A stretch of 64,000 bases of DNA from Escherichia coli (GTDB taxonomy: Bacteria > Pseudomonadota > Gammaproteobacteria > Enterobacterales > Enterobacteriaceae): NCBI RefSeq assembly GCF_003790525.1, contig NZ_CP033635.1; one strand, written 5' to 3'. Made by a program: the position numbers. This document shows positions 6,001 to 13,258 of the stretch, piece after piece (the first letter of the stretch is position 1; each line of letters opens with the position of its first letter).

Positions 6001-9000
6001 GTGAACCTCCGAACAACTGTTTTACCCGGTACATCGCTGTTTCCGCTATCGAACGACGGTTATAATCTGTTGTCCATTTACACCGGGCATTACTTCCGGT
6101 CAGCCGCTGATTAGCCACTGCACGGTTACGGTCTTCGTATTCACCGGGCTAGTAACCCGCACCTTTTCGGGAAGGGGTAAGCGCGCTGATTTTCTTACGC
6201 CTCAGTTCATCGTGACAGAGTCGGGGGTCGTAAGCCCCGTCTACCGCTGCAGCCATGATTTTTCTGTGAGTCTGTTGGAGAAGCCCCGGGAAGGCTTCTG
6301 AGTCCGTGACGTTGTTCAGCGACAGGTCTGCACAGACAATTTCATGTGTGTTGCCATCAACAGACAGATGCGACGCCCCTCTTTGCCGTGCTTTTTGGCT
6401 TTCCTTTCGCCTTCCCCAAAGACTTTTAGCCCGTTGGAATCAATCACGAGGTGTATGATTTCACCCCGGGTGGGGATTTATGTATAAGAAACAGCGTATT
6501 CGTGAGGGGTGAGCCATGAATAAAATCCCTTTTGAAGTATTAATCCACTCTGAAAATGCATTAATCTGCGCAAAGGAAATGGACGCGTTATTAATTAAGT
6601 TAATTGATATTCCGGAAAGTGGCGATAAAACATATTCGATGACGGACAGGCGACAATGTGGTTATCTGTGCTGGCGTTTGGCAGACAGGCCGAAGCACTG
6701 GCCAGACACCAGAAAGGCGAACTGGTAAGCGTGGCAGGTAACATGCAGGTCAGCCAGTGGACAGGGCAGAACGGGAAAACGCGGCAGGGACGGCAGGTTA
6801 TCGCAGACAGCGTAATCAGTACTCAAACGGTGCGGCCAGGAGGAAGCAGACGCGAAACCACAGGTACACAGGGTAATCAGCCACCAACGGGAGGCGACGC
6901 CACTTACGGAGATGATATACCCTTATGAATTAAGCGGGGCGCAACATGAACAACAGCACACTGAAGAGCCGGACAATAAGCGACGCGACAGCGGAAGAAC
7001 TCGAGAGCAGGGGACTGTGGCGACGTGCTGCCAGAAGGTGGCAGGATGTGATGATTACTCTTGAGAAAGACAGTCACAGACAGCTTGCAGTAATGAGAGC
7101 AAGGGAATGTATCAGGAAGGCAAAACGCCCGATACCTGAAAGCCGTATTGATATTCATACAGTCAGAAAGGCCGCAGACAGGACAATACAAAAAATGGGG
7201 CTACCGTCGCTTACTGATGAAATATGGCGCGATTACCCTGATAGCGTTAACGATGACGGTTATTAACTGGCGGGGGAAACACGATACCAGCGGGCGTGAC
7301 TCGGGAGAATATATACCGCTGGTGGAACATTACCGGCCCTGATGGCTGGTGGCGTGCGTTACGACCTGAAAGACCATCCATGCGGGAAGGTGACACAGGA
7401 GCACCTGGCGAACGCGGGGAAGCGACTGGATGAGATTAAGAAAAAACAGCAGGAGCGCAGAAAAAGTAACCGTCTCATTAAAACGTCTTTCGCCTCCCTT
7501 TCCTGTTTCCTATGCTAATGTCCATTTTCGCAGTAAAAGGACATTTACGATGAATGCACGAAAGGCGGTACTGGCAGATAATCCGGAATTGATCCTGCGT
7601 TTGCTACAACTGAAATTTGACGAGACACTGTCGTACCCGCGCATTTCTGCACAGACCGGTGTCAGCAAAACCGCTATTTTTTCTCTGGTGAGGCGATTTC
7701 ATCAGGTATTCACTGACGGGCATCTTTCTGGTGAATATTCCTGCGTGCAACTGACCGGGCTCTTTTCCCGGGGCGATAATATTCAGCCCCGACAGTGACT
7801 CAGCCTGTAAAAACAGAGAAAACCCGTCGGAACCGATTTTCACCAGAGTAAAAATGGAGACTTGTTCAGCAAACTCTTTTACCCGGAGCCTGTGTGGCCC
7901 AGATTGCACGAGAGTCTGGCATCAATGATAATGTTATTTTCAAATGGCTCAGACTCTGGCAAAACGAAGGGCGTGTTTCGCGGCGTCTTCCGGTAACAAC
8001 CACTTCTGACACAGGCGTTGAATTATTACCTATGGAGATAACGCCGGATGAGCAGAAAGATCCGATGATTCCCCTACCGCCAGCTTTTCGCCTGCGCCGG
8101 TATACGTTTCTTTATCTTTGCCCTGCATCACCCACAGGCTGGCTCCGCCGATAATGGCGTTTTGTGGTGCATCTTTCGCGTCAGCGTCGTAAGGCATCAT
8201 GCCTACGCCGTAGTTGAATTTGGCGTACTCGCGAATGTTGGCAAGAGAACCGGAAGAGGCGGTGGTCATCGCGCAATCACCTCTATAGAACTTCTCGGTG
8301 GATTCATCCTTACGCCCGACGTAGATGAAGTCGCCCTTCTTGTTCATCTCCTCGAGCATGACGATGTGTTTCACCTGCTCCGGCTTGTTGAACTCCAGCA
8401 CCGCGTCCGTGGCGTCAAAACCGTTGTTTTTGCTGGCAAACGGCAGACCGTTCCTGGCGCTAAAGTTTTCCAGTTGTATCCACCTCTTTGCCCATTTCCC
8501 CTTCCATAGAGTTCCAAAACGGAATGGTCGTCACTGCCTGTGCATTGCCCATTAACGCCAGTCCGAGCACCAGTGATGAAGCTGTATAATGTAACGGTTT
8601 CATCGTTTATCTCTCTTGCTTGTTGTACCTGATGTGCAAATTCACTCGTTTTATGCTCGCGGGATTACATATCATGCCCGAATTGCAGAAAAATAACTTT
8701 TTATTACATGTGTAAGACAGTAAAACCTCAGAAAGATGACAGTGTGGTGCCGGCGCGGGTGAGGAAAAATGGAAGATGGGGAATGTATAAGCGGGAAAAT
8801 AGGAGGGCCTGTGGATTGTAGATAATGTGCTCATCGTTTTCATGCCGGATGAGACATAAACACTTTTATCTGAGCATTTCTATGTATTCGGACAGTTGTT
8901 CTTGGCATCCAATGGTGCAGGTTCTGTAGTGTGTGGTGGTAGCAATAGCCTCAGCTTCATTACAATATTTATTATCTCAAACATTCAAATGTCCTTGGCC

Positions 9001-12000: not shown

Positions 12001-13258
12001 CCATCTTTAAACAGTAGACCGTTATCGATGTATTCATGGTTTATGGCAAGCAGGCCGTGATCGGAGCTGTTCCCGCCCTGCGGCAGGCTAAACCACGCCA
12101 TGCCGTCGTGGTGCATCCCGGCCTGCGCCGCCTGTTCTTCCGTGGTGTTGCTACCGTCGGTTTTAAAAACCGGCAGATTTCCGGCAATCCCGGTGGCGTC
12201 GCCCCATTTGTAGAAGGGCTTCGCGATGTATCCTTCCGGCACGATAACGGTATCTTCCGTGGAAACCGGCAGGCTGGTGAAACCGAGCGTCGTCGCTTTG
12301 CCGAGGTTACCGCTTGCTTTGGAGACCACTTTCGCCAGCGCGTTTTCCTGTTTCAGCAGAAATGGGAACGCTGCCGCGGCACCGGCGACCGTGCCGGCCT
12401 GTAACAGACGGCGGCGTGACAAATAGACTTCCGCCACCTGCGAAAACGCGCGGTTATCGCTCGGGTTACTGATTTCTTCACTATGCTCACGTTTGAATAA
12501 AGTTTTTAACGGTCTGCCCATTGCGGTTTCCTTTCAAAAAATCGATTTCAAGGGGAATCATTTTTATGCACGTGAGTCTACGGAAAGATTGTTACGGAAA
12601 TATAACAATTGTCATAAAAAACCGGCGATAAAATCATCTATGGTCGGGACGCGGTTTCAGGTATGATGTGAGGCTAGAATTCTGAACGCTCTCTTTTGTT
12701 GAGCATATATGGACGTCCCAGATGAGGCAAGTACTGGTTCGATGCGGTTTGCGACCATATATCCGGCGTCGTTAGTAGGTTCAATGACCTGCGCCATGAT
12801 GTTATCCGGGCCCTATTTCCTAATCACTACACCGGTATTTGATTACCCAGGTCAACTTCAGACTGTTACAGGGGCGGTAGCCGTTATCTCATCAGTGAAT
12901 GTAAACTCAGTTAAAAATATTTTCTATAACTTACTGTTTTTCTTTAATTCATCACAACGGCCTTCTGCATATTAAAATCAATACTATCGCTCAAAACACG
13001 CCAGATGATTCTTGTCAGCTTATTCGCCAGCGCACCAGTGGTTTTCAGGAACCCTCGACGGGCTTCCATCCTTTGCAGACAAATACTCAGACTGTCAGTG
13101 AGCTTTTTCACACAGCGCATTACAGACTGAAATGGCACACTGAATTTGGTCACCTGAACAGAGGTGATATGCTCACCTCAGAACAAGACTGGTGCCCTAA
13201 TGAAAAAAAGAAATTTTAGCGCAGAGTTTAAACGCGAATCCGCTCAACTGGTTGTTGA

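Follow-up and report, generated by a model that had tools for sequence, protein, structure and literature searches.

Textbook accounts give Escherichia coli one Pho-regulated alkaline phosphatase, PhoA, which is exported by the Sec pathway and uses zinc and magnesium; PhoX enzymes are exported by way of twin-arginine translocation (Tat) and use iron and calcium. Here, we analysed a 64-kb stretch of E. coli contig NZ_CP033635.1 (hereafter, the window), of which the region 8030-12700 contains a phoX gene together with broken genes for an ATP-binding cassette (ABC) transporter and a remnant of ugpB. Its product would be expected to play the same role as PhoA, that of a periplasmic phosphomonoesterase activated by PhoB in phosphate starvation, although the two proteins are unrelated in fold and family. 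An earlier sequence-only reading had taken the region for a horizontally acquired unit for uptake and hydrolysis of organophosphate, of which only the secreted phosphatase survived intact. Our analysis favours a different account, to which we assign a probability of about 0.85, namely that the region is a patchwork of three unrelated pieces in a fitness island riddled with insertion sequences (IS), and not a decaying phosphate operon.

PhoX enzymes require iron and calcium, are predicted to be secreted through Tat and are Pho-induced (PMC11098088, PMC9306846, PMC3197622). The PhoX of Pseudomonas fluorescens Pf0-1 (3zwu/4a9v), an Fe-Ca beta-propeller, resembles the E. coli protein in its twin-arginine signal and in belonging to a Pho-regulated family (PMC9306846, PMC11098088). 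The E. coli gene differs in being accessory DNA carried on islands and IncF plasmids, in its long N-terminal region and in its degenerate Pho box, and is known here from sequence. The chromosomal phoX genes of other Enterobacteriaceae (Franconibacter, Siccibacter, Enterobacter, Leclercia, Klebsiella, and Citrobacter) encode proteins with 76-81% amino acid identity to it and share its length, N-terminus, twin-arginine motif and the layout of Pho box, -10 hexamer and terminator. They occupy stable contexts and have strong boxes (28-35 bits in the matrix described below), whereas that of E. coli is a mobile copy that lies among pseudogenes and whose box is weakened. The PhoX family is well known, and the NCBI Prokaryotic Genome Annotation Pipeline (PGAP) already names the parts of the locus correctly; the E. 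coli island phoX is a new, uncharacterised member of that family.

For the other two pieces, the closest described systems are ferric-iron importers of the FbpABC/1y9u class, whose intact layout comprises a solute-binding protein (SBP) of 345 aa, a fused permease of 562 aa and an ATPase of about 230 aa, and E. coli ugpBAECQ, a Pho-regulated ABC importer of glycerol-3-phosphate. Compared with the former, the window contains the final third of the permease gene plus the ATPase gene, 71-82% identical but frameshifted, without an SBP gene or promoter. Compared with the latter, it contains a remnant of 86-88% protein identity that keeps phased Pho boxes and lacks codons ~44-193 and 326-438 as well as ugpAECQ.

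Synteny and junctions of the three pieces

We searched 80 native phoX loci, with 8 kb on each side, by tblastn using the intact SBP, permease and ATPase together with the reconstructed window fragments as queries. Orthologs of the ABC genes were found in none of the 80 loci, which contained only generic ABC ATPases of at most 45% identity several kilobases away, and UgpB was found in none of them either. Reciprocally, phoX was absent wherever intact orthologous ABC operons were examined, in Buttiauxella, on a Klebsiella plasmid and in further E. coli islands. The proposal that the pieces once made up a single acquired uptake and hydrolysis unit thus finds no support in the comparison with intact loci.

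Two further settings delimit the phoX segment. In IncF plasmids of E. coli and E. albertii, phoX is 93% identical and homology to the window is limited to 10442-12605. Avian pathogenic E. coli (APEC) strain BEN2908 carries the permease stub, phoX and the upstream flank as one block in a different island, at tRNA-Leu, without ATPase or ugpB. Together, the bounds of the plasmid homology and of the BEN2908 block place the end of the phoX segment within 5 bp of the permease truncation (10443-10448). A search on both sides of the phoX block for repeats or IS ends yielded only short repeats at chance level. GC content also differs among the pieces: phoX has 0.56, the ABC pieces have 0.44-0.50, and the two parts of ugpB have 0.44 and 0.54. 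In silico, phoX, the ABC genes and ugpB do not form one transcription unit: a terminator lies between phoX and the permease stub, and ugpB has a promoter of its own. Insertion of phoX into an intact ABC operon was considered and rejected, as the SBP and permease N-terminal sequences do not occur elsewhere in the window, in BEN2908 or in the plasmid. The pieces would rather have been brought together by deletion and IS-mediated rearrangement than by descent from one operon.

Annotation was taken from the identical locus of E. coli SFE8, where the window coordinate equals the SFE8 locus position minus 4001. There, PGAP calls an intact PhoX-family protein, two broken ABC genes, an SBP fragment, a 47-aa open reading frame (ORF) and an IS66 tnpA pseudogene. 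All neighbours of phoX are pseudogenes according to PGAP, and phoX is the sole intact gene among the pieces, as the sequence-only reading had stated. The features are collected in Table 1.

Table 1. Features of the phoX region, in window coordinates.
Feature	Position	Strand	Evidence or remark
IS66-family tnpA pseudogene, replaces ugpB 3' end	7550..8154	+	PGAP
ugpB fragment B, codons ~194-325 of 438	8087..8482 (PGAP solute-binding fragment 8081-8482)	-	94.4% nt identity to E. coli ugpB
ugpB fragment A, start codon, signal peptide and codons 1-43 (8475-8603, MKPLHYTAS...)	8460..8603	-	tblastn 88% identity, UgpB residues 1-43
Retained ugp promoter region	8604..8860	-	83.5% nt identity to E. coli ugp upstream region
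IS66-family (tnpC / ISSfl4 ORF3-like) scrap between ugp remnant and ATPase pseudogene	9028..9148	.	72-73% nt, E=6e-6, weak match
FbpC-like ABC ATPase pseudogene, at least 4 frame changes	9222..9888	-	Pfam ABC_tran on fragments; frame-by-frame tblastn against Buttiauxella ortholog; PGAP frameshifted
FbpB-like fused-permease pseudogene	9891..10448 (PGAP 9891-10445)	-	tblastn against Buttiauxella and E. coli intact permeases; PGAP 'iron ABC transporter permease', N-terminus missing, frameshifted
Block of permease stub, phoX and upstream flank, common with APEC BEN2908	10005..13303	.	98.97% identity over 3,299 bp
Predicted intrinsic terminator hairpin just past phoX stop, A-tract before and T-tract after (bidirectional type)	10488..10527	-	Minimum free energy -19.2 kcal/mol, z=-3.55
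phoX, intact, 659-aa Tat-signal PhoX alkaline phosphatase (predicted)	10542..12521	-	Pfam and PDB matches, PGAP
Predicted phoX promoter: Pho box TTGTTATATTTCCGTAAC (12608-12591), 10-bp gap, -10 TAGACT (12580-12575)	12575..12608	-	Positional homolog of native block, top matrix match
Lone Pho half-site TTGTCATAAAAAA	12609..12621	+ (opposite to phoX)	Single occurrence

The ABC debris appears to be the tail of an FbpABC-type ferric-iron importer, the iron substrate being assigned by orthology. PGAP and tblastn agree that the permease and ATPase genes downstream of phoX are frameshifted, which had been recognised before; the truncation of the permease and the missing SBP gene had gone unnoticed. 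By tblastn, what is left of the permease gene is codons ~359-554 of 562; this stretch has undergone at least 3 frame changes and an in-frame loss of 13 codons, and neither an SBP gene nor the permease N-terminus is found elsewhere in the window. Without an SBP gene, and with permease and ATPase both broken, the locus is a remnant of an importer of this type. The permease fragments show 71-82% amino acid identity to the intact permeases of Buttiauxella and E. coli. The closest intact ATPases, from Buttiauxella, Rahnella, and Citrobacter, are 71-73% identical to the ATPase pseudogene, and a common E. coli paralog 67%. The intact operons that we inspected encode an SBP (345-349 aa), a fused permease (562 aa) and an ATPase (225-231 aa) in contexts unrelated to phosphate. 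The SBP of the Buttiauxella ortholog matches 1y9u, a 'putative iron binding protein', over its full length (E=1.6e-150, about 70% identity by eye); FbpA 1q35 (3e-84) and about 25 further solved ferric-binding proteins follow.

The best NCBIfam matches of the ABC parts, and of the closest intact operon, are the 2-aminoethylphosphonate transporter models PhnS2/T2/U2, whose scores lie far under the cut-offs (49 vs 393, 102 vs 593, and 257 vs 458 bits). A phosphate- or phosphonate-transporter assignment was dropped because of these scores and because the ortholog SBP matches the iron-binding 1y9u. With the fragments placed in the FbpABC iron class and lacking synteny with phoX in the loci examined, the claim that they belonged to an organophosphate unit is not supported; this is an outcome that the sequence-only reading had itself named as refuting it. 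An intact paralogous SBP-permease-ATPase operon, with the 67% identical ATPase, is present in many E. coli on another IS-flanked island (CP080260 and CP172217; loci 5264-8678). Since strain GF4 has both this intact operon and the window-type island, the dead ABC copy is redundant in at least some hosts.

The ugpB remnant is a piece of the core ugp operon, doubly deleted, with its Pho-box promoter retained. The sequence-only reading had correctly seen that the start of ugpB is kept and that its middle and 3' end are lost: codons 1-43 and ~194-325 are left. Codons ~44-193 are deleted, with the junction at an ATCCA microhomology (8478-8482), and ugpB homology ends at 8087. Fragment B shows 86% amino acid identity by tblastn over UgpB residues 188-328 and matches Pfam SBP_bac_8 (E=1.6e-8). 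The retained promoter contains three Pho-box-like sites on the minus strand, starting at 8753, 8742, and 8720, each matching the Pho consensus at 13/18 and spaced by 11 and 22 bp, thus in an 11-bp phase; the site at 8720 is the third-best match in the window to the matrix of native phoX sites. Of the marks of a Ugp importer, the Pho boxes in the promoter are present, while full-length UgpB and ugpAECQ are lacking. The host genome keeps its own intact ugp operon, and the remnant is a second, divergent copy. About 0.62 kb separates the ATPase 3' end from the ugpB start; the 1.3 kb reported earlier is obtained when counting from the ATPase start. The 47-aa RefSeq 'hypothetical protein' WP_001470085.1 (8460-8603) consists of the first 43 UgpB codons, signal peptide included, followed by out-of-frame codons past the deletion, and is thus an annotation artefact. 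Pfam scans of small ORFs in the gaps at 8.9-9.2 kb and 12.6-13.2 kb gave no matches.

The phoX gene, its product and its predicted control elements

The 659-aa protein was already thought to be an intact member of the PhoX family, and the profile search confirmed this. It matches Pfam PhoX (PF05787) with E=1e-165 and 553 bits (cut-off 24) over profile positions 2-515 of 515. The P. fluorescens PhoX 3zwu aligns with residues 70-658 (E=2e-167), with 49% identity over the mature protein. We aligned the protein with 25 other sequences, comprising 16 Enterobacteriaceae, Neisseriaceae, Wohlfahrtiimonas, a Lysobacteraceae metagenome-assembled genome (MAG) and the crystal sequence; all 183 columns that are invariant among these homologs are kept. 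The cysteine of the QNCANG motif is conserved (Cys252, corresponding to Cys179 of 3zwu), and Cys179 is reported by Yong et al. 2014 to be an iron ligand. The gene is under purifying selection: its ratio of nonsynonymous to synonymous substitutions (dN/dS) is 0.10 in comparison with the BEN2908 copy and 0.13 in comparison with the plasmid copy, which is 93% identical (dS 0.21).

The twin-arginine signal proposed earlier is supported: residues 35-63, with SRRRLLQ at 35-41, a hydrophobic stretch and ALA-K, fit a Tat signal. The motif S-R-R-x-[FL]-L-Q is kept in enterobacterial PhoX homologs and its SRR core in 25/25 sequences. The precursor would be exported folded via Tat through this signal and, in the periplasm or at the cell surface, would act as an Fe/Ca-dependent phosphomonoesterase that frees phosphate from organic esters. 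The region ahead of the twin-arginine motif (codons 1-34, 12419-12521; MGRPLK..FK.EH..ISN.S.N..FS.V) is unusually long, at about 34 residues, and is kept at the protein level in Enterobacteriaceae, Neisseriaceae, Wohlfahrtiimonas and the Lysobacteraceae MAG. By analogy with cofactor-containing Tat substrates, this leader could be a chaperone-docking segment. The best native matches to the protein (Franconibacter, Siccibacter, and Enterobacter) reach 81% identity; because native PhoX proteins are at most this similar, the donor would be an unsampled member of the Enterobacteriaceae.

We compared, by alignment, the 220 bp that lie upstream of phoX in the window, in BEN2908, in one plasmid copy and in 17 native enterobacterial loci. 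Across genera, the native upstream DNA could not be aligned save for one block conserved in the 17 native promoters, which consists of TGTTATAAAAnTGTAACA, 10 bp and TACACT, followed by an AGGAA ribosome-binding site. Two 11-bp direct repeats make up the block, as in a Pho box (PMC9306846). A position weight matrix (PWM) was built solely from the 17 native sites and scanned across the 64-kb window on both strands. TTGTTATATTTCCGTAAC, which is the native block's positional homolog, ranks first among all positions, at 15.5 bits, and matches the classical consensus at 13/18. The gap of 10 bp between the Pho box and the -10 hexamer matches that of E. coli Pho promoters. With an 18-bp Pho box in place of a -35 element, this PhoB-type promoter would turn phoX on in phosphate starvation.

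The classical Pho consensus CTGTCATAWAWCTGTCAY gave 25 window sites at 13/18 or better and is non-discriminating; therefore, the native-promoter PWM and positional conservation were used. The best match to the classical consensus, TTGTTATATAACTGTGAT (15/18, 61323-61340, plus strand), lies within an ISL3 transposase pseudogene near iutA by SFE8 colinearity and is probably due to chance. A generic sigma-70 scan, which cannot score Pho-box promoters, found promoter-like sites at no more than the level of shuffled sequence (5 vs 4.6).

The sequence-only reading had pointed to half a Pho box upstream of phoX as a control element. A half-site, TTGTCATAAAAAA, does exist, although about 16 bp from the position given (12625-12640), and a putative Pho-type promoter is indeed present; its candidate box, however, is the adjacent TTGTTATATTTCCGTAAC, and the half-site cited is inverted, out of phase and non-conserved. 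It is directed away from phoX, and the distance from its TGTCA core to the closest core in the conserved box is 20 bp instead of 22 bp. Neither the native phoX promoters nor the plasmid copy, whose homology stops at 12605, contain it, and no second half-site was found for it. It is the only perfect YTGTCATAWAW of the window, with a chance expectation of ~0.14-0.31 matches, and at least one such match arises in 28% of shuffles. It is best regarded as a half-site that arose by chance or is a relic.

The hairpin downstream of phoX would end its transcript; a terminator scan calls its core stem at 10499-10515. Comparable hairpins occur 3' of phoX in nearly all native loci, where the neighbours vary by genus: Enterobacter has a TonB-dependent receptor and an amino-acid permease there, and Franconibacter has unrelated genes. 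With its own predicted Pho-box promoter and terminator, phoX looks like an autonomous, self-contained transcription unit. Immediately upstream of phoX in Enterobacter, Leclercia, Citrobacter sedlakii, and Atlantibacter is a gene for a 727-aa TonB-dependent receptor (Pfam-annotated in E. hormaechei only, locus 3690-7974), whose C-terminal coding sequence is conserved right up to the phoX promoter. On the IncF plasmids (such as CP099214.1, locus 6482-10083), phoX is convergent with a gene for a 447-aa phytase-like esterase (PF13449, E=1e-60), a 54%-identical homolog of which adjoins phoX in a Lautropia MAG. If any partner gene is real, this esterase is a stronger contender than the ABC system; the window contains no trace of the esterase gene.

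Weighing the alternative explanations

Descent of all three pieces from one acquired organophosphate module is very unlikely. It would explain why they lie on the same strand within 4.5 kb, why Pho-regulon membership and Pho-box promoters are common to ugpB and phoX, and why the best family-library matches of the ABC parts are phosphonate-transporter models. But those matches fall far short of their cut-offs, the ortholog SBP is of the FbpA iron-binding class, and the synteny expected of such a module is missing from native phoX loci as well as from the intact ABC operons examined. The junctions tell the same story, with the permease broken off at codon ~359, precisely at the end of the phoX segment, a terminator separating phoX from the permease stub, the ABC debris parted from ugpB by an IS66 scrap and a separate promoter, and GC contents that differ among the pieces. 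The case cautions that same-strand adjacency of thematically alike genes can be coincidental in IS-rich islands, and that weak best matches in family libraries can mislead on substrate class. Even less credible is a once functional pair in which the iron importer fed the Fe-Ca cofactor of PhoX. Such a pairing would suit the need of PhoX for iron and calcium (PMC11098088), the FbpABC type of the remnant, the position of Enterobacter phoX directly downstream of a TonB-dependent receptor gene and the conservation of the phoX-permease junction in two islands. Against it, FbpABC-type genes stand beside phoX in none of the 80 native loci, and the junction lies inside the permease coding sequence, with the SBP gene and promoter gone. 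The island is moreover rich in iron cargo (iha, sit, iuc/iut), which explains an iron-transporter remnant without phoX.

A patchwork of unrelated pieces thus remains the preferred account, with phoX as an autonomous gene maintained by selection that is probably under PhoB control and exported through Tat. Several observations weigh against parts of it. The junction common to two islands makes the adjacency of phoX and permease at least older than both of them, and, the true phoX donor being unsampled, synteny was judged from native loci whose PhoX is at most 81% identical. The iron assignment leans on an ortholog of 71-82% identity because the SBP gene of the window itself is lost. The Pfam TAT_signal model scores PhoX below threshold (16.7 vs 22.7 bits). 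At 15.5 bits, about half the native score, the Pho box is degraded relative to the native sites and to BEN2908 (20.6), and part of this loss comes from a T>C change at 12596, specific to this island lineage, which falls in the second TGT core, where all 19 other sequences (BEN2908, the plasmid copy and the 17 native promoters) have T; induction of phoX may therefore be weak. These last points bear on a further possibility, which we consider unlikely, that phoX is intact yet silent or only weakly responsive to phosphate, its Pho box decayed and the whole region heading for loss. The A-rich spacer of the box has also become TTTC, the plasmid copies, which have lost part of the first half-site, score 9.9 bits, and every neighbour is a pseudogene. 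Against it, dN/dS is low and the set of invariant residues is complete, the geometry from box to -10 and the ribosome-binding site are kept, and a C at the equivalent position of the first half-site is tolerated in 3 native promoters. The C variant is also stable, 65/94 chromosomal phoX copies being identical to the window over 60 bp spanning the Pho box.

Island setting and distribution

That the region was horizontally acquired, as previously proposed, is supported. E. coli chromosomes including those of SFE8 and NRZ14408 match the locus region at 100% identity. The SFE8 copy belongs to a genomic island beginning with a tyrosine integrase beside ydjZ-ynjA. Besides abundant pseudogenes and IS debris, the island has as cargo iha, sitABCD, sodC, aerobactin genes and an additional amiC; the iron-importer tail is in keeping with the iron-uptake part of this cargo. 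The window is colinear with SFE8 except for two insertions, the extra window segments 18395-19927 and 39555-42253. The island is large and also holds iutA/iuc, pseudogenised lipopolysaccharide-modification genes, integrative and conjugative element remnants (TIGR03756/7), ibrB-like genes and a group II intron remnant; its extra amiC is Tat-dependent.

Among 5,426 complete E. coli genomes, 54 contain the whole 8000-12800 segment and 98 a full-length phoX. About 2% of complete E. coli genomes thus have a second alkaline phosphatase, of another family, on mobile DNA and under purifying selection. Its importance is modest; in wild isolates it could alter phosphatase phenotypes and the outcome of phoA-based assays, and it could contribute to fitness in a small way. 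A literature search on phoX in APEC, extraintestinal pathogenic E. coli (ExPEC) or E. coli islands found nothing specific.

A more speculative proposal, about which we are doubtful, is that the phoX unit (2-3 kb) is a selectively maintained mobile Pho-regulon accessory. It would have moved among at least 2 chromosomal islands and IncF plasmids (ExPEC/APEC-type and E. albertii) and would supply a zinc-independent (Fe/Ca) second alkaline phosphatase, whose long conserved leader could dock a cofactor-insertion chaperone. If so, a mobile phoX would be of use under zinc withholding by the host or where phosphorus comes mainly as organic phosphate, the poultry gut being one example. Of the 94 genomes with the chromosomal phoX promoter, 30 were sampled at even spacing; 15 of their hosts were chickens or poultry and 9 were humans, some entries being repeat assemblies of one strain; an association of phoX-positive E. 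coli with poultry or APEC is possible.

A 112-bp internal piece of phoX (window 11548-11659) recurs, at 90-93% identity, in some 360 further complete genomes and plasmids of E. coli, BL21 and T7 Express derivatives among them. It is labelled by PGAP as an incomplete 'alkaline phosphatase' pseudogene, and it adjoins IS30 debris and a fragment of a RelE toxin. This piece seems to be left over from the plasmid-type phoX arrangement.

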